A DNA stretch of 32,000 nt, taken from assembly GCA_024277355.1 (NCBI GenBank), contig JAJRVL010000002.1:1-32000 (forward strand), read 5' to 3'. Below, in pieces: positions 9,027 through 23,396 of the stretch; position 1 is the first letter of the stretch, and the number at the start of each line of letters is the position of its first letter. This DNA is from an archaeon. GTDB taxonomy: Archaea; Iainarchaeota; Iainarchaeia; Iainarchaeales; 1-14-0-10-31-34. A program made the position numbers and the translations under genes. The notes beneath the pieces are model-generated. The model ran no database searches. It was not told the origin of the DNA and saw only the letters and a list, made by a program, of their open reading frames with translations.

Positions 9027-9770
9027 TTAACTTTCGTCGTAGGCTTCTTCTATTCCGTGGACTTTCATTCCGTTTTTGGTTATTGTTACTGGATGTAAGT
9101 CTTCTGAGTGTTTTGTTGAACGCATTTTTCTTATGTGGACTGTTCTGTTTGTTCCGCCGCCGCCTATTCCTGAATAATGTAATACTATTACTCCATCTAC
9201 TACATATTCTTCTACATCATATCTTCCGAATTTGGCTGCACCTTCTTGTATTTCTGAAGTCATAATTGAAGTTACTCCAATTCTCATTAACATATAACTT
9301 AATTTTAGTATTGCTTTTCTTGTTTCATTTTCGTTTTCAAAATTAAAGCCTAATGCAGGAATTGAATCAATTACTGCTCTTTTTGCTCCAATTCTTTTTG
9401 TTACTCTCATTATTTCTAGTAATAATTTATCTAAATCAAAACCTGTCATTGGTAAAGAAAATTCTTCTTCTGACGGCATACCAATTCTTGCAACACTTCC
9501 GTCTATTATGCTGATTAATTTTTTTTCTTCTAATTTTTTTAAATCCCAGCCAAATCTTGTTACGTCTTCTCTTATTAATTCTGGTCTTTCATCTAAAGTT
9601 ACATATATTCCTGGTTCATTGTATTTTACGGCGCCATTGTAAATATACTGCATTGAAAAAATTGTTTTTCCGGTTCCACACGCTCCTGATACAAGCATTG
9701 TTCTTTTTTCAGGAAAGCCTCCTTCAATTAAATCATCTAATCCGCTTATTCCAGTTTTAACTCTTTTCAT
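9027..9770 (-). CDS. single-domain KaiC/RadA-like (RecA-superfamily) ATPase
   Basis: GISGLDDLIEGGFP, Walker A GACGTGKT, Walker B-like RAVIDSI, and a C-terminal IRKMRSTKHS region as in COG0467-type KaiC homologues. I prefer the ATG at 9770, preceded by AAGGTG plus a 6-nt spacer; the GTG at 9779 is part of that SD. Confidence 0.85.
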   Translation of the reverse strand: MKRVKTGISGLDDLIEGGFPEKRTMLVSGACGTGKTIFSMQYIYNGAVKYNEPGIYVTLDERPELIREDVTRFGWDLKKLEEKKLISIIDGSVARIGMPSEEEFSLPMTGFDLDKLLLEIMRVTKRIGAKRAVIDSIPALGFNFENENETRKAILKLSYMLMRIGVTSIMTSEIQEGAAKFGRYDVEEYVVDGVIVLHYSGIGGGGTNRTVHIRKMRSTKHSEDLHPVTITKNGMKVHGIEEAYDES

Positions 9771-9836
9771 TTTTAACACCTTTTTCTATAATTATTGTTT
9801 TTGAATTAATAAACTTTTGTTTTTGTGTTTTTTCAG

Positions 9837-12516: not shown

Positions 12517-12536
12517 AAATGCAGTTAACTGCATTT
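12517..12536. terminator. perfect 20-nt palindrome between convergent tpiA and the pilin gene (bidirectional terminator candidate)
   Basis: AAATGCAGTT|AACTGCATTT, flanked by an A-run on the left and T's on the right. It overlaps the last codons and the stop of the pilin gene. Confidence 0.5.
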
Positions 12537-12977
12537 TCCAATTAATCCTTTGTCGCCTAACTGTACTAATCCATTGACTTTCTTTGAATTGTAAGTAAAT
12601 GAAACATTGTAGTCAAATCCGCTTCCTGCGTTTCCGCATGCAGTTAATCCTGTTAATGAAACTAATTCAGATTCGCCTGCGTTAAATGAAACACTTGAAC
12701 TTAATCCGGCTATTCCGTCAATGTTTAAGTCAGTTAAAGTCAGTTTGTTTGCTGAAATATTCTGCACTTCAATTTCTGCTGTTGTTCCGCTGAATTTGAA
12801 TTCCTTTATTGAGAAAGGAGAAGTGCTTTGCCAGTATGCTCTTGACTGTTGTTCGGTTAATCCTCCTGTTAATCCAGGAACCCAACCCATTACACCTACA
12901 ACAACTAATGCAATGACAATTATTACTGCAAGAATAATTAAGTATTCTGTTGTTCCTTGTGCTTTTCTTCCAATCAT
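12525..12977 (-). CDS. archaeal type IV pilin-like protein with class III signal peptide (candidate major pilin)
   Basis: MIGRKAQG|TTEYLIILAVIIVIALVVVGV: a short basic leader ending in G, an acidic residue shortly after, then a ~20-aa hydrophobic helix, followed by a Ser/Thr/Gly/Asn-rich beta-type domain. It has the strongest SD in the locus (GGAGG plus an 8-nt spacer) and is the last gene of the operon. Confidence 0.8.
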   Translation of the reverse strand: MIGRKAQGTTEYLIILAVIIVIALVVVGVMGWVPGLTGGLTEQQSRAYWQSTSPFSIKEFKFSGTTAEIEVQNISANKLTLTDLNIDGIAGLSSSVSFNAGESELVSLTGLTACGNAGSGFDYNVSFTYNSKKVNGLVQLGDKGLIGKCS

Positions 12978-13038
12978 TTTTTTTTCCTCCTTTTAGATAA
13001 ATATTATAGCTATTATTTAGTGTCTTTTTATTTATAAC
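12978..13038 (-). promoter_or_regulatory. pilin upstream region: GGAGG SD (12986-12990) plus A/T-rich TATA-like boxes
   Basis: The minus strand reads GTTATAAATAAAAAG...AGCTATAATATTTATCTAAAAGGAGGAAAAAAAAATG. The SD is clear. Which TATA-like element, if any, is used cannot be decided from the sequence. Confidence 0.35.
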
Positions 13039-13047
13039 TTTTTCTGA

Positions 13048-13977
13048 TTAGACAATTGAAAGAAATCCTGAAATTACTGTTTTAAATGCTGTAAAAAGAA
13101 TAAATGATGCAATAAAAATTATTGGAGAATACTTTAATCCCAATTTTATTTTTCTTTCAGTTAAAACTCCTATAAATAAACTTGCAAGAATTGAATTTCC
13201 TAATAATAAAATCACTGCAATATTGTGCATGAAATTTGAAGTTATTACGATTTCTGCACTAAGAAAACCAATATTAAGGCTTTCATCAACTGCACTTTGT
13301 CCTTGAATTGAATTAATCATTTCAAGGAACTGAACGGAAATTGACATCAACAAAGGGGTTGCTACAACTATTACAAATAAAACAAATAACACATACATTT
13401 TTGTTCCTGAAATCATTTCTTTTTTCATTTCCTGTGTTTTTGATATGTCTTCTGAGCTTGCTTCAAGCAGTTTAGCCAGTTTTCCGCCGGACCTCATGCT
13501 TTCAGAAAGAAATGCAACGCTTTCTTTTAGAATTCTTGAATCAATTTTTTCGGATAATTGTTTTAATGAATTTCTGAATGAGTCTATTCCTAAACTTTTT
13601 GTGCTTATTGTTTTTATTTCTTCAGCTAAAGGGCCAAATTCTTCTCTTGAACTGTTTTTAAATGCACTAAAAGGAGTCATTCCAGATCTTAAGTTTGATG
13701 CAACTAATAAAAGAAAGTCTGGAAGGACTGTTTCAACTCTTTTTACTCTGTCGTCAATTTGGTGTTCTAAATGAAAATAATAAATAAATTCAGTTAAAAT
13801 AAAAAGAATTATTCCTAAAATAAATGAAAATAATATTTGAATTGTGAATTCATTTAATGAAAAATATTTACCTAAACTTAATGGAATTAAAAAACCAATT
13901 ATAAAAAACAATAATGCAAGCATTATTCTTTTACCTAACCATTCATCTATGTCTTCGTTTATCCCTGCATAATCCAT
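13048..13977 (-). CDS. type IV filament platform protein, single T2SSF (FlaJ/TadC-like) domain
   Basis: 309 aa. N-terminal TM segments, then a cytoplasmic helical domain (VETVLPDFLLLVASNLRSGMTPFSAF...LSESMRSGGKLAKLLE), then C-terminal TM helices, which is the T2SSF topology. The reading frame stays open for 31 codons upstream of the ATG (to 14070). Confidence 0.8.
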   Translation of the reverse strand: MDYAGINEDIDEWLGKRIMLALLFFIIGFLIPLSLGKYFSLNEFTIQILFSFILGIILFILTEFIYYFHLEHQIDDRVKRVETVLPDFLLLVASNLRSGMTPFSAFKNSSREEFGPLAEEIKTISTKSLGIDSFRNSLKQLSEKIDSRILKESVAFLSESMRSGGKLAKLLEASSEDISKTQEMKKEMISGTKMYVLFVLFVIVVATPLLMSISVQFLEMINSIQGQSAVDESLNIGFLSAEIVITSNFMHNIAVILLLGNSILASLFIGVLTERKIKLGLKYSPIIFIASFILFTAFKTVISGFLSIV

Positions 13978-14042
13978 TTTAATTAAAATTTTTTTTCTTG
14001 TTTTTTCAGGAATGATTTCTGAAAGTCTTTTTTGTATTAATT

Positions 14043-14927
14043 TTATAAAATCACCTTTGGTTTTCTGTTTTTAACAAAACCAATTAATATTATTTGAACT
14101 ATAAATGCAAATAAAATTGTAATAATTACATGCATTTCAGATATGTCTGATCCTCCAAAAGAAGAAAGAATTATCATAAAAGTAATTCCTAAAGTTGGAA
14201 TTGCGGCAGCTAAAAGCAGATACATTAAAATCCATAAATTTAGTTCAGCTGAATAATTTTTTATTGCTCTTAATTGATTTGCAGTTAAAGTGTTAATTGC
14301 AGTTTCTAATGCACCTGCAACACTTGCCCCGCTTTTAATTGATGCAGTAATCTGCCAGGCAGCTTTTTTCATGTATTCTGATTTTGTTTTTAATGCAAGT
14401 TTTTCTAATGCTTTTGCTTCAGAGATTCCTGAATTAATGTCCTGAATTAATTCATTGAATTCTTCTGATACTATCCCATAATCTGCTTTAGCAATGTTTT
14501 TTATTGTGTTAAATAAAGGTATTCCTGATTTAACCTGAATTAACATGCTTTTTAATGCAAAAATTAAGTTTTGGTCAATTCCAAAAGCAATTCTTTTTGA
14601 AATTATTCCTGGATAAATAATATGCAAAAAGAAAAATAACACAAAAAACATTATTCCTGCAATAACATTTAATGGAAATGCGTTTGCAATTATTCCGTCT
14701 CTTAAAAAAATAAGGGCAGTTAAAAAAATAAAGAAAAAAATCCCGTAAATTAATCCAGATAAAAAACTTGCAGTAAGATACTCTTCAGTGCTTATATTTA
14801 ATTCTGCTTTTTTTATTTCATATTTAACTCCGACAAAAACTTTCTGAAAAAAATCTCCAATAAATAAAATTCGTTTATTTAATTTTTTAGCCTGTTCGAT
14901 TGAAAACAACATGAATTTTACTCTCAT
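14043..14927 (-). CDS. type IV filament platform protein, single T2SSF (FlaJ/TadB-like) domain
   Basis: 294 aa. TM helices flank a cytoplasmic helical domain (IFALKSMLIQVKSGIPLFNTIKNIA...ITASIKSGASVAGALE), and it ends in TM helices. It is a paralogue of the downstream gene. Confidence 0.8.
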   Translation of the reverse strand: MRVKFMLFSIEQAKKLNKRILFIGDFFQKVFVGVKYEIKKAELNISTEEYLTASFLSGLIYGIFFFIFLTALIFLRDGIIANAFPLNVIAGIMFFVLFFFLHIIYPGIISKRIAFGIDQNLIFALKSMLIQVKSGIPLFNTIKNIAKADYGIVSEEFNELIQDINSGISEAKALEKLALKTKSEYMKKAAWQITASIKSGASVAGALETAINTLTANQLRAIKNYSAELNLWILMYLLLAAAIPTLGITFMIILSSFGGSDISEMHVIITILFAFIVQIILIGFVKNRKPKVIL

Positions 14928-14936
14928 TTTTTATCA

Positions 14937-16187
14937 CTACATTTTATTGAAGTCAAGTTTTTTTCCCACTGCTTCCAGAACTAAATCCTTGTTGCTGTAA
15001 TATTTGTTCATTACTTCTCCTACTTTGTTTACGTCATTTATTTTTTTTTCTATCATCCATTCAAGGATTGTTTTTCTTTCTTCTAAATCTTTAGTTATTT
15101 CCTGTTCGGTTAATCCTGTGTGTAAATTTAATTCTCCGTAAAATTTTGTTGGTTCATCTATTTTATCCCAGGTGTCTGTTCTTGGGCTCCATCTGTAAAT
15201 TGTGTTAATTGAAATGCTTCCTTCGTGGCTTCCTGTGTCTATTTCGCTTATTTCCATTGTTCTTCTTTTGTTTGTTTTTCTGTCTCTGTATTGAACTAAA
15301 ACTAAATGTAATGCTTCAACTTCTAATGCAGGAATTTCAATTGGCGGTTCAGTTAATCTTCTGACTAACTGCATTCCTGAATCGGCATGCATTGTTGAAT
15401 AAACTGAATGTCCTGTATGCATTGCTTCAAATAATACTTCTGCTTCTTTTCTTTGCCTCATTTCTCCTAAAATTATTCTGTCTGGACGCATTCTTAATGC
15501 AGACATCATTAAGTCAAACATGCTTATTTCTCCTACGCCTTCTGGGTTAGGGTTTCTTGTTGTTAATGGAACCCAGTTCCATTTTAAGTTTTCAGGAAGA
15601 ACTAGTTCTCTTACATCTTCTATTGTAATTATTCTGTGGTAATTTGGAATCATTGCACATAAAGTGTTTAGTGCAGATGTTTTTCCTGAGGCGGTTGAAC
15701 CTGCTACCATTAAATTCATTTCATAATGCAGTGCCATCCACAAAAAGGCAGCCATTTCTGAGTTCATTGTGTGTTTTTCAGGAGAAATAAAGTCTGTTAT
15801 AGTCCAGGGTCTTCTTGAAAATTTTCTTATTGTAATTGTATTGCCTAAAGATGAAACAGGAAATAATGTTGCATTAACTCTGTCGCCTGTAATTAAATGT
15901 GCGTCAAGAATTGGATTTAAGTTTGTTATTTCTCTTCCGATTTTTCTTGCAATTTGTGCAGCATAATTTTCAATTAATTCTTCTGATTCAACATTAATGT
16001 TTGTTTTAAGCCAGCCAAATTCTCTGTGATACACTGCAATAGGTGTCTTAGATGAATTAATTGTAATTTCTTCTAATAAGTCATCTTTAATTAATACTTC
16101 TAATTCTCCCATTCCATACATTTCATGCAGTAAAATTCCTGCAAGTTTTGTTGTTGTAGATTTTTCATTTTCAGGAAAATATTTCAT
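14937..16187 (-). CDS. FlaI/TadA/VirB11-family type IV filament assembly ATPase (core as delimited by the first ATG)
   Basis: Walker A GSTASGKTS, Walker B/Asp box RPDRIILGEMR, His box GHSVYSTMHA. The true N-terminus almost certainly lies upstream (see feature 16188-16448 and the finding). Confidence 0.9.
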   Translation of the reverse strand: MKYFPENEKSTTTKLAGILLHEMYGMGELEVLIKDDLLEEITINSSKTPIAVYHREFGWLKTNINVESEELIENYAAQIARKIGREITNLNPILDAHLITGDRVNATLFPVSSLGNTITIRKFSRRPWTITDFISPEKHTMNSEMAAFLWMALHYEMNLMVAGSTASGKTSALNTLCAMIPNYHRIITIEDVRELVLPENLKWNWVPLTTRNPNPEGVGEISMFDLMMSALRMRPDRIILGEMRQRKEAEVLFEAMHTGHSVYSTMHADSGMQLVRRLTEPPIEIPALEVEALHLVLVQYRDRKTNKRRTMEISEIDTGSHEGSISINTIYRWSPRTDTWDKIDEPTKFYGELNLHTGLTEQEITKDLEERKTILEWMIEKKINDVNKVGEVMNKYYSNKDLVLEAVGKKLDFNKM

Positions 16188-16448
16188 TAAAGTTTTATTT
16201 ACTATTTGTATAAATTTTTGTTTTAATTTTAAGTTTTCTTCTTCTGAGTCAATTGAAACACTTTTTGCAATTTCGTCTTTTATTTCTTCAAGGAATTTTT
16301 TTGTTGAATAGTCTGCTTTGTCAAATTCAAGGAAATATAAAGGGCGTTTTTCTTTTTCTATTGTTTTTATTTTAACTGTTGCATTTGATTCTTCTTTTAT
16401 TTCGTATGTGTTTATAGTTTTAGTTGCTTTAATTAATTTTTTTTTTCT
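16188..16448 (-). other. 87 in-frame sense codons upstream of the ATPase ATG with no ATG/GTG/TTG; probable N-terminal domain of the ATPase
   Basis: My manual translation reads RKKKLIKATKTINTYEIKEESNATVKIKTIEKEKRPLYFLEFDKADYSTKKFLEEIKDEIAKSVSIDSEEENLKLKQKFIQIVNKTL, running directly into MKYFPENEK. An in-frame TGA sits at 16449-16451. The frame is -1 relative to ORF 16433-16660 across the A10 run at 16437-16446. Confidence 0.65.
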
Positions 16449-16660
16449 TCAGGAATTTCCTGTTCAAGTCTAATAAAAGGTTTAGATAAAACATTTGCGG
16501 GATAAATTACATTTAATATTCCTGTTTTTTCCATTACTTTTGCTGTTAATTCAACTTTGTTTTTTTCCCAGTTTAATTGTTTTGATATTTGTTCAATTGA
16601 AAGCTTTTTTTCGTCTTTAAGCAGTTCAACCATTTCACTTATTTTTGTTTTTAGTATCAT
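16433..16660 (-). CDS. small winged-helix-like protein, or the N-terminal module of the ATPase if the frames are joined
   Basis: 75 aa: MILKTKISEMVELLKDEKKLSIEQISKQLNWEKNKVELTAKVMEKTGILNVIY. This helix-turn-helix-like pattern is my inference and is not verified. The ORF ends inside the A10 run (GAA GAA AAA AAA AAT TAA). Confidence 0.55.
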   Translation of the reverse strand: MILKTKISEMVELLKDEKKLSIEQISKQLNWEKNKVELTAKVMEKTGILNVIYPANVLSKPFIRLEQEIPEEKKN

Positions 16661-16702
16661 TTTTTTCCCTTCAGCAATAATACTGTTTTTTTATTAATAA
16701 AT

Positions 16703-17569
16703 CTAACTAAACTGTTTTAGTTCCATTAATGAATTGGAATTTAAGTCTGTTTGAATGTAATTTAAGTCAATGTCTGCATAAAGCTTTAAGCTTGAATTAA
16801 AGTCAATTGCAGGCATAATTGATTTAAATGAAAGATTAATTTTATTTTGGTTGATTGTTTCATTTTCAATTAACATTGCATTATTTTTTCCTTTAAAAGT
16901 CCCAATATTAATTTTAATTTTGTCGTCTCCGTCAGCTGAAAAAATTATTTCTATTTTGTTTTTTAAAGTTGAATCCATTAATAATATTTCATGTTTTTCG
17001 TTTAATGCATTTCCATCAATATAATTAAAGTTTACAATTAAATCAGGGTTTAATGCATTTAATGGTCTTGAAACAGAAACCGAACTTCCTGAAACAGTTA
17101 AATTTAAATCCATTGAAGTCATGTTTGTGTCTCCTAAAGCATAAAAGAAAACTGAATTTTTGTTTGGAGTAAAATCATATTCGTAAACTAGTTTATTGCT
17201 GAATTTTAATGGAATATTTTGGTTTAATCTGTCAACATTAATTTTAATTGAAGAATTATTTATGGCAGAATAACTTGTTTCAGCAAACTCTTTCATTTTT
17301 ATGATTCTCTGCATTTTATTGAAATCTGAAGGAATTATTTCATTAAAAGTTATTTCAAGATTATTTCCTTTATTTACTTTAATGGAAGTTCCTAAAATTT
17401 TGTTTAAGTCAAAACTTAAATCATCTTTAATAAATTCCATTTTAGAATATTTTTTTATTTCTCCTGATGAATAATTTCTTGAATTAACATTTTCTAAATA
17501 AAACATTGAAAATAAAAGCATTGAAGAAAGTAAAAGAATTGCACTAAAGCTTATTACATACCCTTTCAT
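16703..17569 (-). CDS. pilin-like/pilus-associated protein with prepilin-type N-terminus (288 aa)
   Basis: MKG|YVISFSAILLLSSMLLFSMF followed by an Asn/Ser/Ile-rich beta-type domain. Its start overlaps the upstream stop (ATGA at 17566-17569). I recognise no family. Confidence 0.6.
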   Translation of the reverse strand: MKGYVISFSAILLLSSMLLFSMFYLENVNSRNYSSGEIKKYSKMEFIKDDLSFDLNKILGTSIKVNKGNNLEITFNEIIPSDFNKMQRIIKMKEFAETSYSAINNSSIKINVDRLNQNIPLKFSNKLVYEYDFTPNKNSVFFYALGDTNMTSMDLNLTVSGSSVSVSRPLNALNPDLIVNFNYIDGNALNEKHEILLMDSTLKNKIEIIFSADGDDKIKINIGTFKGKNNAMLIENETINQNKINLSFKSIMPAIDFNSSLKLYADIDLNYIQTDLNSNSLMELKQFS

Positions 17570-17982
17570 TTTTTCACCTTAAACCAGGCTTTTAATTCAG
17601 CCCAATAAAATTTTTCTCCATAAAAAAAACTTCTTTTAGTTGAAATTTCAGTTAAAGCATTTTTTTTGCATCCTTTTTTTGAAGTAGTATTTAATGCACT
17701 TGAATTATTATCATAATCATATATATTTAATTCAAAACACAAATTTTTTGTTGTTTTATTTAAGTATTTTGAGATTTCTTTGTTTTTGTTTTCTTTTACT
17801 GCTTCTTCAAATTTCCCGCTTTTTTCTAATACAGTTAAAACATCCTCTGAAATTAATGCTAATTTAGTTTCATTTAATGAACTGAATTTGCTTTCAGCAA
17901 AATTTCCGCTTATTGCTACAAGCAATGCAAAAGAAATAATTAATGCAATTACTGCATCAATTGAAATAATAAACCCTTTCAT
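17566..17982 (-). CDS. minor pilin-like protein with class III signal peptide (138 aa)
   Basis: MKG|FIISIDAVIALIISFALLVAISG. It shares an ATGA start/stop overlap with the gene on each side. Confidence 0.65.
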   Translation of the reverse strand: MKGFIISIDAVIALIISFALLVAISGNFAESKFSSLNETKLALISEDVLTVLEKSGKFEEAVKENKNKEISKYLNKTTKNLCFELNIYDYDNNSSALNTTSKKGCKKNALTEISTKRSFFYGEKFYWAELKAWFKVKK

Positions 17983-18482
17983 TTAAACACTCCGAAAATA
18001 AATTTTCTTTCTTTTTCATTTAACAAAACATATCTTTCAATTACAATTGTTTTGTTTTCAGCTGAAGGAAAAACTCCGAATTGTTTTAATGGTTGGTCGT
18101 TCATTGAAGTTACTTTAAAATAAAAATCGTATTTTTGTAAACCTAAAATTTCTTTTATTTCATTGTATTTAGCTGCATTTAAGTCAATTAATTTATTTAC
18201 TTTATTTTCATCTAAAATATTTCTTTCTTTTGCTAAGCCAATTGAATTAATGTTTAAGTCATTTAATGTTTCCCAGGAATTTGGCTGGCCTGAAGTCGAA
18301 ATTAAAATTTGAGATGCATTAACTGCTTTTTCCTGCATTTCAAAATAATATTCTTCTTCATTAAGTGAATTCTGAATTAAACCAAAAGATGAAAATGAAA
18401 TAACTAAAATAAAAATTAAAGCAGTAAAAGAAACAATAAAATCAGTGGTAAAAACCTGCCCTTTACAGTTCTTCAATTTCAA
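17979..18482 (-). CDS. minor pilin-like protein with class III signal peptide (167 aa)
   Basis: MKLKNCKG|QVFTTDFIVSFTALIFILVISFSSFGLI. Confidence 0.65.
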   Translation of the reverse strand: MKLKNCKGQVFTTDFIVSFTALIFILVISFSSFGLIQNSLNEEEYYFEMQEKAVNASQILISTSGQPNSWETLNDLNINSIGLAKERNILDENKVNKLIDLNAAKYNEIKEILGLQKYDFYFKVTSMNDQPLKQFGVFPSAENKTIVIERYVLLNEKERKFIFGVFK

Positions 18483-18506
18483 TCACTCCCTTTATGTTTT
18501 CTATTC

Positions 18507-18974
18507 TTATTTCATTTGCATTAACTTTTGAAATAAAAATAATTTTTTTGTTAAAAGTGAAGTTGAAATAAACTGGCCTTGTCTGAATTTTATTTTAACG
18601 GAATTTTCTTCAAATTCAATTTCAAAATCATAATTTTTTGTTATTATTGTTTTGCTTCCTTCTCCTGAAATATAAATGCCGTTAATGTTTCTTGCAATTT
18701 TTTCGCTTAAGGTTTTTGCTTTGATTTTTTCTGAATTAAAATCAATGTTTTTTTTTTGTTCAACTGAAACTGCAACAACTAAAGAAAACATTAAGAAGAG
18801 CAAAACAAGAGTTATTACAAATTCAGCTGAAATCTGCCCTCGCGGTTGCGTCCGCGAGTAACGCGTGCTATCTGCGATAGCACTGATTTTATTTCCGCTT
18901 TCGAGCGGGAGAACCGAGGCACGATTTCGCTGTTGCTCAATCCTGCTGTCATACTTTTTTGTTTTTTTTTTCAT
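18507..18974 (-). CDS. minor pilin-like protein with an atypically long, GC-rich leader (155 aa as drawn)
   Basis: The pilin-type motif PRG|QISAEFVITLVLLFLMFSLVVAVSV starts only at residue ~45. The only in-frame canonical start is the ATG at 18974. The leader codons are GC-rich and atypical for the window. Confidence 0.6.
   Translation of the reverse strand: MKKKTKKYDSRIEQQRNRASVLPLESGNKISAIADSTRYSRTQPRGQISAEFVITLVLLFLMFSLVVAVSVEQKKNIDFNSEKIKAKTLSEKIARNINGIYISGEGSKTIITKNYDFEIEFEENSVKIKFRQGQFISTSLLTKKLFLFQKLMQMK
18839..18908. other. three tandem GC-rich hairpins (candidate structured RNA / cis-regulatory element)
   Basis: CTCGCGG-ttgcgt-CCGCGAG (18839-18858), GTGCTATC-tgc-GATAGCAC (18865-18883), CCGCT-ttcg-AGCGG (18895-18908). 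All stems are perfect and sit in a local GC-rich island (about 18836-18950) within an AT-rich background. The existence of the hairpins is certain; their function is unknown. Confidence 0.5.
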
Positions 18975-18979
18975 TTATT

Positions 18980-21163
18980 TCACGGAGTCCTTTGAACAAT
19001 ATTAATATCATCAACATAAAAGTAATCTCTTCTGCCGCTCATTCCGGCATCAAATGCAATTCTAAAGTTGTTTGACAAAGGATATGCATTTAAGTCAAAT
19101 GAATAAAAATGATAAGTGTTGTCTGAGTCAGCTGAAGTAAAAATTTTTATTATAGTCCAGATAAACCCGTTAGAAGAAATGCTAACTCTTGTGGTGTCTC
19201 CTGATTCAAATGAATTAACTTTAGCCCAAAATTCCAGTCTTGGATTAGTATACGCACTTAAATCAACTGCTCTTTCAGCATATCCTGTGCTTCTTCTTAA
19301 TCTTAAATGATTTGGAGAACTATAAGGGGTTCCTCCGCTTCTGATTGAACTGTCTCCTGAATGAGTCCATGCATTTAGCCATCCTGTTCCTGAACTCCAG
19401 CTTGTATCAGGGAAAGTGTGGAATGCAATTATTATTGGGCCAGTTGAATTAATTATTATGGTTCTGTTTTCATCACTGCTTCCTGTATTTGGAACTGAGT
19501 AATCATCAGTGCAGTTTACATCCCAATAATAAGTTCCGTTTGAAGCAAAAGTTTTAGTAAAACTTTGAGTAATTCCTTCAGTTATTGAATTGTCTGTTTG
19601 GTCTATTATTCCATTAATAATCAATTCACAAAAATTAATTCCTGAATCAACATCATTTACCGTATAGTCAAACTGAACACTAAAACTGTTTGAAGTATAA
19701 CCTGTTGCAGGGCTTTCAAGCATTATTGTTGGCGGAGTGCTGTCTATTGTATAATAAGTTGAAGTAGTATAAGTGCTTCCGTCGCTAAATTCAAATGTAA
19801 TTCTAAAGTATTCTCCGTCATTATTAACTATTTCATCAAATCTTAATTCATTTCCTCCGCTAAAAGAAGTTGACGCATTAATTGTAAAATCTGTTACATT
19901 AATCCATTCTCCTGCATTTGCTGTTCCGTTCCAATAATCAGTTCCATCAAATCTTACTCTTTCTATAATAGCTGAATCCTGATCTGTTTCATTCCAGTCC
20001 CATACAATAATTCTTGAAATTGTAAGGCTTGTATTAATACTGGTGTTTTCTATTGTCCAGTTTCTTAATCTGTCTCCACCTCCATTAAATGACGCAGTAC
20101 TCCATGAGAAATTAAAGTTGTCTGACATATTGCTGACAGTAACATTTAATGAAATAAAATCTGAATTAATTCCATCTGAAGCAGTAACAGTTCCTGTGTC
20201 ACTGTTTGAACCCAAGGGAACATCAATAGTAACTGTAATTTGCTGGCAAGTATTTCCTGTTAAAGAATTAATTGTTGGAATTGCCTGAACCCAATCTCCT
20301 GCGTCTCCATTAGATGAAGTAAAAACAATATTAGTTAATGCAGTTGAAGTTGTATTGCATACTTGAAAGTTATTTGAATCTGAATAACCTGAATCAATTG
20401 AAGGACTCCATAAATCAGGAAAAATCATTAAAGGCTGGTTGCTTTCTCCGACAATTACTTCTAAAGTTAAAGGAACAATTATTTGTTTTGCTCCGTCAAT
20501 TGTATTTACATCAAAAATTAATTCGCCTGAATAATTTCCTACAGCAAATAAATTAGAAGTAAAATTTAAATCAATTCCAGTGTTTGAGTCAGCAGGAACA
20601 ACAAAAGAATTACTGCTTAATTGCAAAGTAACATTAGCTGAAGTCCAGACATAACTAACTGAAACACTTGCGTTTCCGCTTGTATTATTTATTACTTTAA
20701 TATTTTCTATTGCACTTGTATTCTGTGCTATAGTTGAATAAATACTTCCTTTGTCTGTTTCAATTTGAATATCTCCAATTAAAACATAACCTTCATAAGA
20801 AGTAATCCAAATCCAATGGCCCCCTGATTCAGTTGGAATGCTTCCTGTTACTTCAACTTGTGATTCAGAAATTACATCTGTTCCATTAATGTTTAGTCTT
20901 ATTGTTTTGTCTGAAATTGAACTTTTGTTTTCATCTATTCCTGATGGAATTGAAATAAAAATTTGTTTTTTTGTTCCAGGGCCAGAAACGAAAACTTCGT
21001 TAGCTGTACTTGCAAGTTTATTAACTGTATTTTGTGCTTCAGAATTTGCTTTAGCATAATTAATTGAAGTTATTTCATTGTTTGATACAGAAATAATTAA
21101 TCCAAGTACTACCATTGAAACTGCAAGAATAATTAATAATTCAACTGACGCCTGCCCTTTCAT
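18980..21163 (-). CDS. large pilin-like surface protein / candidate tip adhesin (727 aa) with class III signal peptide
   Basis: MKG|QASVELLIILAVSMVVLGLII, then a Ser/Thr/Asn/Gly-rich beta-type sequence. It includes an Ig-like segment (DSTPPTIMLESPATGYTSNSFSVQFDYTVNDVDSGINFCEL) and a C-terminal jelly-roll-like segment (LEFWAKVNSFESGDTTRVSISSNG...DYFYVDDINIV). I counted about two dozen N-x-S/T sequons by hand. Confidence 0.75.
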   Translation of the reverse strand: MKGQASVELLIILAVSMVVLGLIISVSNNEITSINYAKANSEAQNTVNKLASTANEVFVSGPGTKKQIFISIPSGIDENKSSISDKTIRLNINGTDVISESQVEVTGSIPTESGGHWIWITSYEGYVLIGDIQIETDKGSIYSTIAQNTSAIENIKVINNTSGNASVSVSYVWTSANVTLQLSSNSFVVPADSNTGIDLNFTSNLFAVGNYSGELIFDVNTIDGAKQIIVPLTLEVIVGESNQPLMIFPDLWSPSIDSGYSDSNNFQVCNTTSTALTNIVFTSSNGDAGDWVQAIPTINSLTGNTCQQITVTIDVPLGSNSDTGTVTASDGINSDFISLNVTVSNMSDNFNFSWSTASFNGGGDRLRNWTIENTSINTSLTISRIIVWDWNETDQDSAIIERVRFDGTDYWNGTANAGEWINVTDFTINASTSFSGGNELRFDEIVNNDGEYFRITFEFSDGSTYTTSTYYTIDSTPPTIMLESPATGYTSNSFSVQFDYTVNDVDSGINFCELIINGIIDQTDNSITEGITQSFTKTFASNGTYYWDVNCTDDYSVPNTGSSDENRTIIINSTGPIIIAFHTFPDTSWSSGTGWLNAWTHSGDSSIRSGGTPYSSPNHLRLRRSTGYAERAVDLSAYTNPRLEFWAKVNSFESGDTTRVSISSNGFIWTIIKIFTSADSDNTYHFYSFDLNAYPLSNNFRIAFDAGMSGRRDYFYVDDINIVQRTP

Positions 21164-21444: not shown

Positions 21445-22440
21445 TCAAAATATTTCTATGTCTGCATAAATTTTTATGCCTTCCTTTTCAAAATTTAATG
21501 CACAAACCTTGTTTGTGTGTTTGGTTCCGCGCATTTTAAGTATTTCAAGTGAATGAACTCTTACATCTTTTTCTTCTTTTTTTTCATAATATAATGAAAT
21601 TACTGCATCAACTAAAAATCCCACTGAACCTTTTGCTGTTTCAGCTTCTTTTGGAGACATTTCGCTTATAATTATTGAAGTACAGTTCCATTTCCTTAAT
21701 AACTCAAAAAATTTCAAAATGTTTTCTCTTTGCTGGTATTCGTCTCTGAATAATAAAGAATAAGATGTAATTGAATCAATTACTAATCTTTTGGCTCCCA
21801 TTTGATTTATTGCATCTCTTATTGGCCCGCCACCCTGATCTAATAATCTTCCAACCTGATGCGGTTTGTATTCAAGAACTCTGAATAAACCTTTTTTTTC
21901 TAAGTCTTCAAAATCCCAGCCATATTCTGCGTTATGCCTGTAATATGATTCTTTGCTTTCTTCAAAGCTGATTAATATTCCTGGTTCATTGTATTTTACG
22001 GCTCCGTAATATAAAAACTGTAATCCAAAAGTAGTTTTTCCTGTTCCTGCACTTCCTGCAACTAAAACAGTTGAATTTTTTTCTATGCCTCCTTCAATTA
22101 ATTCATCAAAACCAAAAATGCCTGAAGGAATTCTTTCTAATTGGTTTAATTTTTTTACTGGTTTTTTTGGTTCATTGAATTCGTTTGTTTTTTCTTCAGT
22201 TTTTATTTCTTTAATTGATTTGTCTTTTTCTGTTTTTGATTCAGTTGTTTCTAATTCTTTTTTTGTTTCTTCATTTAATGTTTTAATTGGTTTTTCTTCT
22301 TTTTTTGTTAGTTCTTTTTTTGAAGGGATTTTTGTTTCAAGTTCAGCAATGCTTGGTTTTTCTTTTATTTCTTTTTCTGACTTAATTTTATTTTTTTTTA
22401 AGTCAAGATTGCTTTCAATTACAACTTTTTTTTTTTGCAT
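21445..22440 (-). CDS. KaiC/FlaH-like RecA-superfamily ATPase with a ~105-aa Lys/Glu/Thr-rich N-terminal extension
   Basis: The C-terminal ~225 aa carry GIFGFDELIEGGI, Walker A GSAGTGKT, the KaiC-type ISFEES, Walker B RLVIDSITS and LKMRGTKH. The N-terminus is low-complexity (KKELTKKEEKPIKTLNEETKKELETTESKTEKDK). It is a paralogue of 9027-9770. Confidence 0.85.
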   Translation of the reverse strand: MQKKKVVIESNLDLKKNKIKSEKEIKEKPSIAELETKIPSKKELTKKEEKPIKTLNEETKKELETTESKTEKDKSIKEIKTEEKTNEFNEPKKPVKKLNQLERIPSGIFGFDELIEGGIEKNSTVLVAGSAGTGKTTFGLQFLYYGAVKYNEPGILISFEESKESYYRHNAEYGWDFEDLEKKGLFRVLEYKPHQVGRLLDQGGGPIRDAINQMGAKRLVIDSITSYSLLFRDEYQQRENILKFFELLRKWNCTSIIISEMSPKEAETAKGSVGFLVDAVISLYYEKKEEKDVRVHSLEILKMRGTKHTNKVCALNFEKEGIKIYADIEIF

Positions 22441-22994: not shown

Positions 22995-23120
22995 TTTTTC
23001 CCTCCTTTTTTGTTTAAATTAAAAACAATTTATTATATGGATTTCTCATTTCTCATTTAAATTCTTTTGCTTTTAGAATTTTCTTGTTTTTTCAGTAAAA
23101 AAAGAGTAAAATTAGAATAA

Positions 23121-23396
23121 TGCAGGCGTGTTTTGAAGTCGAATTAAAACCGAAAATTAAATTAGCCCTTGAATGCTCTAGCTTCCGTTGCTCCCAAAAG
23201 CATTAAACAATAAAATTTCCGCTGCACCCTTCCAGGCCTGACGGGTTGACTTTAAGGCTTAATCTTAGGGGACAGAAGTTCATTGAAACAACCAAGGATT
23301 TAATTTCCTGAATTAAATCCTTCCCCAAAACTTCGGCTCCTGCTAAAGCAGATTTCAGGTAACAGAGAACTGCTAACTCTCCAGCCTAGCCTGCAG
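23121..23396 (-). ncRNA. signal recognition particle RNA (archaeal 7S-type SRP RNA)
   Basis: The minus strand contains the helix-8 core GUCAGGCCUGGAAGGGUGCAGCGG (compare the conserved SRP motif AGGxCxGGAAGGxAGCA). The Alu-domain 5' part GGCUAGGCUGGAGAG...CUGUUACCUGAAAUCUGC...GGAGCCGAAG resembles archaeal SRP RNAs as I recall them. There is a perfect 12-bp hairpin AAGGAUUUAAUU/AAUUAAAUCCUU (helix-6-like) and terminal pairing UGCAGGC/GCCUGCA. The region is GC-rich relative to its flanks. The ends are approximate, within about 5 nt. Confidence 0.85.

Follow-up and report, generated by a model that had tools for sequence, protein, structure and literature searches.

The window, by which we mean the whole 32-kb stretch of DNA that was analyzed from an uncultured DPANN archaeon, contains a type IV filament operon on its minus strand, and the order of the genes in and around this operon is conserved in the close relatives. 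It runs from a KaiC-like gene through a small ORF, a large pilin-like gene, four small pilin-like genes, an ATPase gene, two T2SSF genes and a pilin gene, and beyond the operon's pilin it continues with TIM, RelA/SpoT and a second KaiC-like gene. The two platform genes (PF00482) lie directly downstream of the ATPase gene, and the pilin-like genes in the operon encode KGQ or RGQ and hydrophobic N-termini, which are class III signal peptides. Because no archaellum genes are present at the locus, the system is of the pilus type and not of the FlaI type. Judged from its sequence, the ATPase gene encodes an archaeal GspE/FlaI-type type IV filament assembly ATPase, and membership in this family predicts that the product would act as a hexameric, ATP-hydrolyzing assembly motor. 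The features of the operon are as follows.

12525..21163, minus strand: type IV filament operon that encodes one large (727 aa) and four small pilin-like proteins, the ATPase, two T2SSF platform proteins and a 150-aa pilin; gene order shared by every close relative
14937..16660, minus strand: whole ATPase gene, with winged helix (wHTH), linker, FlaI/GspE-type N-terminal domain and T2SSE domain; 574 aa if the run is A11, relatives of 571-579 aa covering 100% of it in one frame
16433..16660, minus strand: 5' piece, the 75-aa ORF, covering the winged helix (residues 1-65) and the beginning of the linker; modeled with wHTH topology in P0001 (AF2), dN/dS 0.13-0.24 against relatives
16437..16446, minus strand: A10 homopolymer, the frameshift site; run missing from the homologous linker in six relatives
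16436..16442, minus strand: A AAA AAT heptamer in the zero frame with the TAA stop directly after it, formally a -1 slippery site
16188..16448, minus strand: 87 startless, stop-free codons encoding the linker remainder and the initial structural elements (strands and helices) of the ATPase N-terminal domain
14937..16187, minus strand: 416-aa annotated piece (P0007), comprising what is left of the N-terminal domain, the ATPase core with Walker A and a tail resembling PilB3_C
18463..18974, minus strand: pilin-like gene whose class III signal motif is RGQ|ISAEFVITL; 170 aa if A8, 155 aa as assembled
18543..18549, minus strand: second one-A deficit, A7 where the relatives L006 and L012 have A8; the conserved last 30 aa are in the -1 frame

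The remaining window is taken up by purine-biosynthesis genes and an A-type ATP synthase operon, together with a tRNA-Phe(GAA) at 106-181 on the plus strand and an archaeal SRP RNA (Rfam RF01857, 133.7 bits) at 23120-23396 on the minus strand. The two KaiC-like ATPase genes (9027-9779 and 21445-22440, both minus) flank the pilus-operon region here as in every close relative; the 247-aa KaiC-like protein is 93-96% identical to those of the relatives, compared with 55-89% for its neighbors. In the second T2SSF gene (13048-14046, minus), a conserved N-terminal peptide containing IKLIQKRLSEIIPEK is encoded upstream of the first ATG, in a stretch with no in-frame ATG, GTG or TTG. An ATA at 14044-14046 (minus) shares bases with the stop codon of the gene before it (ATAA), and a conserved SD, AAAGGTGAT, stands 3 nt upstream of this ATA. 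At the homologous position, 7 distinct relatives also have ATA, and L003 and L012 have GTG. The comparison suggests that this gene has a conserved, non-canonical start at ATA and is translationally coupled to the gene before it.

As assembled, the ATPase gene is parted into two open frames. The 75-aa ORF (minus strand, 16660..16433) begins with the ATG at 16660 and ends with CCT GAA GAA AAA AAA AAT TAA, the TAA stop lying at 16435..16433, and the A-run in this ending is exactly 10 nt long (16446..16437 on the minus strand, T10 on the plus strand). In the ATPase frame, the upstream side is closed by a TGA at 16451..16449 and the frame is open from 16448. The 87 codons between 16448 and 16188, which precede the ATG at 16187, include zero ATG, GTG or TTG codons and offer only ATT and ATA codons. 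Adding one A to the run (A11) joins both frames and gives a 574-aa product, and a single frame is regained with either A11 or A8 in place of A10. The preliminary description of this DNA had already reported the end of the 75-aa ORF, the A10 run, the open and startless 87 codons and the fused length of 574 aa, and all of these held on recheck. The public record starts the ATPase at the ATG at 16187 and gives it 416 aa (P0007, 100% identity and 72% coverage of the fused query). The open startless lead is more than chance, since the probability of 87 stop-free codons under the local base composition is ~2e-4, none of the window's 46 open frames with at least 100 codons has a longer startless lead, and stops are dense in the two off-frames of the ATPase gene (46 and 62 per 574 codons).

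The fused protein aligned with A. fulgidus GspE (2OAP) with an E value of 3.5e-72, starting from chain residue 28, and with S. acidocaldarius FlaI (4II7) with an E value of 1.2e-61, starting from chain residue 21. Both alignments begin at residues 74-80 of the fused protein, which is inside the startless 87 codons; they bear out the earlier proposal that this segment encodes an N-terminal domain of the FlaI type. In the Pfam search, the T2SSE domain (PF00437) was recovered with an E value of 4e-31 and 108 bits against a cut-off of 24.9, while the match of the PilB3_C tail was sub-threshold; the Walker A motif of the ATPase is GSTASGKT. From the first strand of the N-terminal domain to the C-terminus, the architecture is shared with the solved GspE (2OAP) and FlaI (4II7/4IHQ) proteins, and the window ATPase differs from them in having an additional 65-residue N-terminal winged helix and a flexible linker.

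The nature of the 75-aa part was addressed with an AlphaFold model of the homologue P0001, which is 80% identical to the fused protein (the model is therefore not of the window's own sequence, and was made from a 30-sequence alignment with a mean pLDDT of 83). In this model, residues 1-65 fold as H6-17, E19-21, H22-29, H33-44, E49-52 and E62-65 with a pLDDT of 81-90, which is the H-strand-H-H-strand-strand topology of a winged helix. Residues 66-80 form a low-confidence linker, with a pLDDT of <50 at 73-76, and the remainder consists of the N- and C-terminal domains of GspE/FlaI; superposed on 2OAP, the model gave a target-normalized TM of 0.82. The Pfam matches of the 75-aa part to HTH families were all sub-threshold (HVO_A0114 with 20.3 bits against a cut-off of 27.6, DUF3489, and HTH_DeoR with an E value of 0.06). 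Thus, the wHTH-like character that had been ascribed to the 75-aa ORF is upheld by the modeled structure of the homologue but not at the Pfam threshold. According to the model, the frameshift is inside the flexible K/E-rich linker between the accessory winged helix and the canonical ATPase.

For the comparison of the junction, DNA of relatives was taken from close database homologues and from further loci in GTDB representatives and JGI metagenomes. In no fewer than 11 distinct Iainarchaeota/Micrarchaeota loci, one tblastn segment in one frame spanned query residues 1-574, with L031 and L044 truncated where their contigs end. The related full-length proteins are 571-579 aa long, up to 80% identical and encoded in a single frame; the six closest database proteins (77-80% identical, 571-578 aa) are single ORFs covering 100% of the fused query. 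Among the best 120 database matches, which include >100 homologues and in which the named sources are Diapherotrites/Iainarchaeota, Micrarchaeota or simply archaeon, coverage of the fused query is 96-100% in nearly all cases; the exceptions are P0007, which is the window's own shortened product, and P0010, which comes from a 1.2-kb contig. Because the relatives encode the whole protein in a single frame with this coverage, the 75-aa ORF and the startless remainder are, on the evidence of sequence comparison, one gene for a winged helix, an N-terminal domain and an ATPase. The earlier view that the two ORFs are one gene parted by a -1 shift on the A-run, with a product of normal size for the family, was thereby confirmed, and reading the junction in related genomes, as had been suggested, revealed a fused single ORF and no conserved A-run. 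An independent ATPase start in orthologues with no conservation of the 87 codons had been set against the fusion; the clade has no separate start, and the segment is conserved in it. This wHTH-ATPase architecture is already represented by the >100 database homologues.

In the six relatives that were read at the junction, no A-run of at least 9 was found at the homologous linker. The longest A-runs there are two A8 in L002, which are in frame and in a non-homologous register, and the linker is K/E-rich and varies in length and sequence among the relatives. The distant DPANN ATPases from Aenigmatarchaeota and Woesearchaeota (44-48% identity) are without the winged helix and start at an ATG 10-20 residues before the first strand of the N-terminal domain. 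The N-terminal winged helix (window 16465-16660, minus) is clade-specific: it is fused to the ATPase in the close Iainarchaeota-like relatives, in Micrarchaeota and in one Woesearchaeota relative (L025), and it is missing in most of the Aenigmatarchaeota, Woesearchaeota and Methanosarcinales-labeled relatives. Some ATPase homologues reach 800-980 aa with additional N-terminal extensions.

The selective constraints on the three parts of the gene were estimated from dN/dS between the window and the relatives and among the relatives themselves. The values were 0.13-0.24 against 0.05-0.17 for the winged helix, 0.20-0.83 (0.28 in comparison with the closest relative, L001) against 0.20-0.39 for the startless segment, and 0.07-0.15 against 0.07-0.13 for the ATPase body, respectively; because dS was near saturation, these values exclude only an old pseudogene. 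By this comparison of sequences, both sides of the shift are real coding sequence with no sign of decay. A long-standing pseudogene was rejected because there are no further stops or shifts and dN/dS is similar to that among the relatives.

When the proteins of the relatives were compared with the window in all frames, exactly one frame change besides the ATPase site was found in the 13-kb syntenic block, and it lies in the pilin-like gene. This second site was absent from the preliminary description. As assembled (18974..18507), the pilin-like ORF encodes 155 aa, of which the last 11 residues are aberrant, and the last 30 residues of the protein proper (IIFISKVNANEIRIENIKGVIEIEEL, followed by the stop), which are 67% identical to those in L001, are encoded in the -1 frame after A7. 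There are thus two single-A deficits, both in poly-A and 2 kb apart.

Several RNA-level features were observed around the pilin-like gene. A 14-bp AU-rich hairpin directly follows the A7 run (18500-18542, minus; -14 kcal/mol, z -3.3, reached in 1 of 200 shuffles). As a conserved frameshift stimulator, this hairpin was rejected because it is only partly kept in L001, is missing in the others and has a spacing of 0 nt. The start codon ATG and the prepilin motif RGQ|ISAEF are separated by a GC-rich insert (47-56% GC compared with 29% in the genome) with 3-8 stable hairpins, found at 18842-18975 (minus) in the window, at 3525-3815 in L001 and at 3740-3820 in L003. In frame, the insert encodes a leader of 26-96 aa, its last hairpin always abuts the GGN CAG codons, and the window version has an MFE of -43.6 kcal/mol (z -3.3); the insert is missing in L002 and L004, whose proteins start with MK(K)GQ. 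Rfam and tRNA scans gave no match for the insert and none at the ATPase A10 or the pilin A7 site.

Two ways in which the broken frame could itself be functional were considered. One had been put forward in the preliminary description, alongside a homopolymer error and phase-variable control, namely programmed recoding, in which ribosomes shifting by -1 on A AAA AAT or programmed transcriptional slippage on A10 would yield two products, a 75-aa winged helix and the full-length ATPase. A perfect X XXY YYZ heptamer, A AAA AAT, does stand in the zero frame directly before the stop (16442..16436), it is identical to the heptamer of fucA1, where the coding sequence is similarly split into 81 + 426 aa (PMC8211752), and the break falls exactly at a domain boundary, so that both products would be folded modules; the A10 run also reaches the length of ~9 or more at which transcriptional slippage is expected (threshold from PMC1088944). 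However, the frameshift occurs in 0 of the at least 11 related loci and no comparable run exists in the six relatives read at the junction, where the runs are at most A8, in a non-homologous register and in frame. No stimulatory RNA structure was found 5-9 nt downstream, the MFE being -0.47 kcal/mol (z +0.70) for the 87 nt and -5.2 kcal/mol (z +0.7) for the 141 nt downstream of A10, and no SD-like element lies upstream of the site. The phase of the heptamer follows automatically from the loss of one A in a run of AAA codons, and an equally perfect A AAA AAA is present in the neighboring pilin-like gene, where two products make no sense. Since no relative has the shift or the run and no RNA structure lies downstream, there is no support for a conserved programmed recoding site here; on these sequence comparisons, the shift does not appear to be a conserved, evolved recoding signal, and we regard such recoding as very unlikely. 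The other way is a functional natural split, in which the wHTH protein would be made alone and re-initiation at the ATT at 16433..16431 (TAATT) would produce a 499-aa ATPase of canonical DPANN length. The distant relatives without the winged helix start about where this ATT lies, and the same operon appears to use an ATA start overlapping a stop (ATAA) in the second platform gene. However, the ATT has no SD-like motif, whereas the ATA start has the conserved AAAGGTGAT 3 nt upstream; the wHTH is kept fused in every clade member carrying it, and ATT initiation is unsupported at the ATPase locus, so that a natural split seems to us the least probable reading of all. Most genuine starts in the operon have an SD-like motif (GGTGAT, AGGAGG, GGAGTG and similar) a few bases upstream, and such a motif is absent before both the ATG at 16187 and the ATT at 16433. 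The Met at 16187 is an internal codon and no conserved start, because it is Leu in 5 of 7 close relatives. An independent start of the ATPase was likewise rejected, given that the segment has no ATG, GTG or TTG and no SD and that Met 16187 is Leu in most relatives.

The fucA1 gene of S. solfataricus has been reported as the only case of -1 PRF in cellular archaea (PMC8211752), and the likeness of the window site to it is considerable: the A-AAA-AAT heptamer is identical, the direction is the same (-1), an N-terminal ORF of ~80 aa is followed by a 3' ORF of ~420 aa, and the full-length relatives differ by one A in the run. The difference is that fucA1 has flanking rare codons, a putative stem-loop and a frameshifted product demonstrated experimentally, whereas the site in the window has nothing downstream and occurs in no relative.

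It is one gene, its frame changes at the A10 run, and neither the shift nor the run is conserved; as for the cause of the missing A, our preference is for an under-call of homopolymer length (A10 for A11) in the consensus of a single metagenome assembly, to which we would give about an even chance. Under this inferred explanation, the organism would have A11 and make a normal 574-aa ATPase, and an A missing from the poly-A of the linker would split the gene into the 75-aa ORF and the startless remainder. Under-calling is favored because two one-base deletions, both in A-runs, are its classic signature. The errors that typically persist in long-read consensus are one-base losses in long homopolymers, and such consensus is reported to be still unreliable for runs of at least 10 and for bins with <40-fold coverage (PMC9262707). 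The genome is exceptionally rich in runs of this kind, and four coding A/T runs of at least 10 exist within the 32-kb window. The resemblance to such errors in long-read data and MAGs lies in the one-base deletions in long homopolymers that fragment gene calls, and the difference lies in their low density here. Among 130 A/T runs of at least 7 in likely genes, only 2 break the frame, whereas the 128 others, including 33 A8, 9 A9 and two more A10 at 18748-18757 and 18962-18971, are in frame, which speaks against an under-call. If the assembly is based on Illumina reads only, a consensus error at A7/A8 would also be unusual. In addition, about 20 housekeeping genes align with their Pfam profiles over essentially the full length, among them purA/B/F/C/E, guaA, Asp/Asn-tRNA synthetase, TIM, RelA/SpoT and A-type ATPase subunits; a generally error-ridden assembly was rejected on this ground, and a truncation of purE, once suspected, proved to be a natural terminus. 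Finally, both broken runs are in the same surface-filament operon, which would fit real inactivation or length variation too. The operon holds 19 of the 130 runs of at least 7, including all three coding A10, and the hypergeometric probability that both broken runs fall in it by chance is ~0.02 if these runs are weighted equally and ~0.10 if run length is allowed for. The clustering of both lesions in the pilus operon is thus suggestive at most.

The alternative is that A10 (and A7) are real, recent replication slippage having knocked out the ATPase and the pilin-like gene in the dominant genotype, where they would then be young pseudogenes or in a length- or phase-variable state; we consider this quite possible, though at rather less than an even chance. 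It would agree with the location of both hits in one non-essential surface-structure operon and with the clean remainder of the window despite the 128 other long coding runs, and the lack of decay on either side of the shift fits a very recent or leaky lesion equally well as an artefact. In many prokaryotes, slippage begins to show once A/T runs reach ~9, and runs of this kind are also hypermutable (PMC1088944); frameshifts of disrupted archaeal genes have been reported in A/T-rich tracts (PMC8211752). However, the run is missing in the relatives, which gives no hint that a contingency tract has been maintained, the A7 at the pilin site is too short for efficient transcriptional slippage, and the other operon genes with comparable relatives are full-length. 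The organism is moreover a singleton in a 15-billion-protein collection: every window protein found there is a one-member, NCBI-only cluster, and an exact look-up found neither the fused ATPase nor the repaired pilin in it. A search of JGI metagenomes with a DNA pattern of exact flanks and a variable run gave no contig of the same species, and protein-guided scans of GTDB representatives and JGI metagenomes gave only relatives with at most 78% identity.

If A10 is real, RNA-polymerase slippage would be possible at that length and a minority of full-length ATPase could arise adventitiously, and the A AAA AAT beside the stop could permit some -1 ribosomal slippage. By comparison with known slippage systems, the window has a sense-strand A10 in an AT-rich (29% GC) reduced genome, in which one extra A in the mRNA restores the frame; unlike in these systems, the run is not conserved. 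Tamas et al. (2008) reportedly described how slippage rescues poly(A) frameshifts in endosymbionts. Transcriptional slippage on runs of at least 9 A/T is known from T. thermophilus dnaX and from IS elements (PMC1088944). Phase variation of surface structures by homopolymeric tracts (PMC2831843) is similar in that coding homopolymers in pilus genes would allow one-base ON/OFF changes, but the tract is missing in the relatives and such switching is not established for archaeal pili. We think it improbable that a real A10 and A7 serve as an ON/OFF or leaky pilus switch in this DPANN archaeon, in which homopolymer length, together with slippage of RNA polymerase or ribosomes at A10 and at A AAA AAT beside the stop, would set the amount of full-length ATPase and release a free winged-helix protein. 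If such a homopolymer switch were true, the ATPase gene would be only the second gene of cellular archaea with demonstrated expression by way of a -1 shift.

At present, the public record contains a 416-aa ATPase without its N-terminal half and an orphan 75-aa hypothetical protein. We recommend joining these two entries into a single 574-aa wHTH-GspE/FlaI-type ATPase or marking them as a frameshifted gene, and the same applies to the neighboring pilin-like gene. The present evidence does not require that the lesions be real; if they are, the only pilus system recognizable in the window would be switched off or leaky, and this would bear on how DPANN cells attach to surfaces or hosts.
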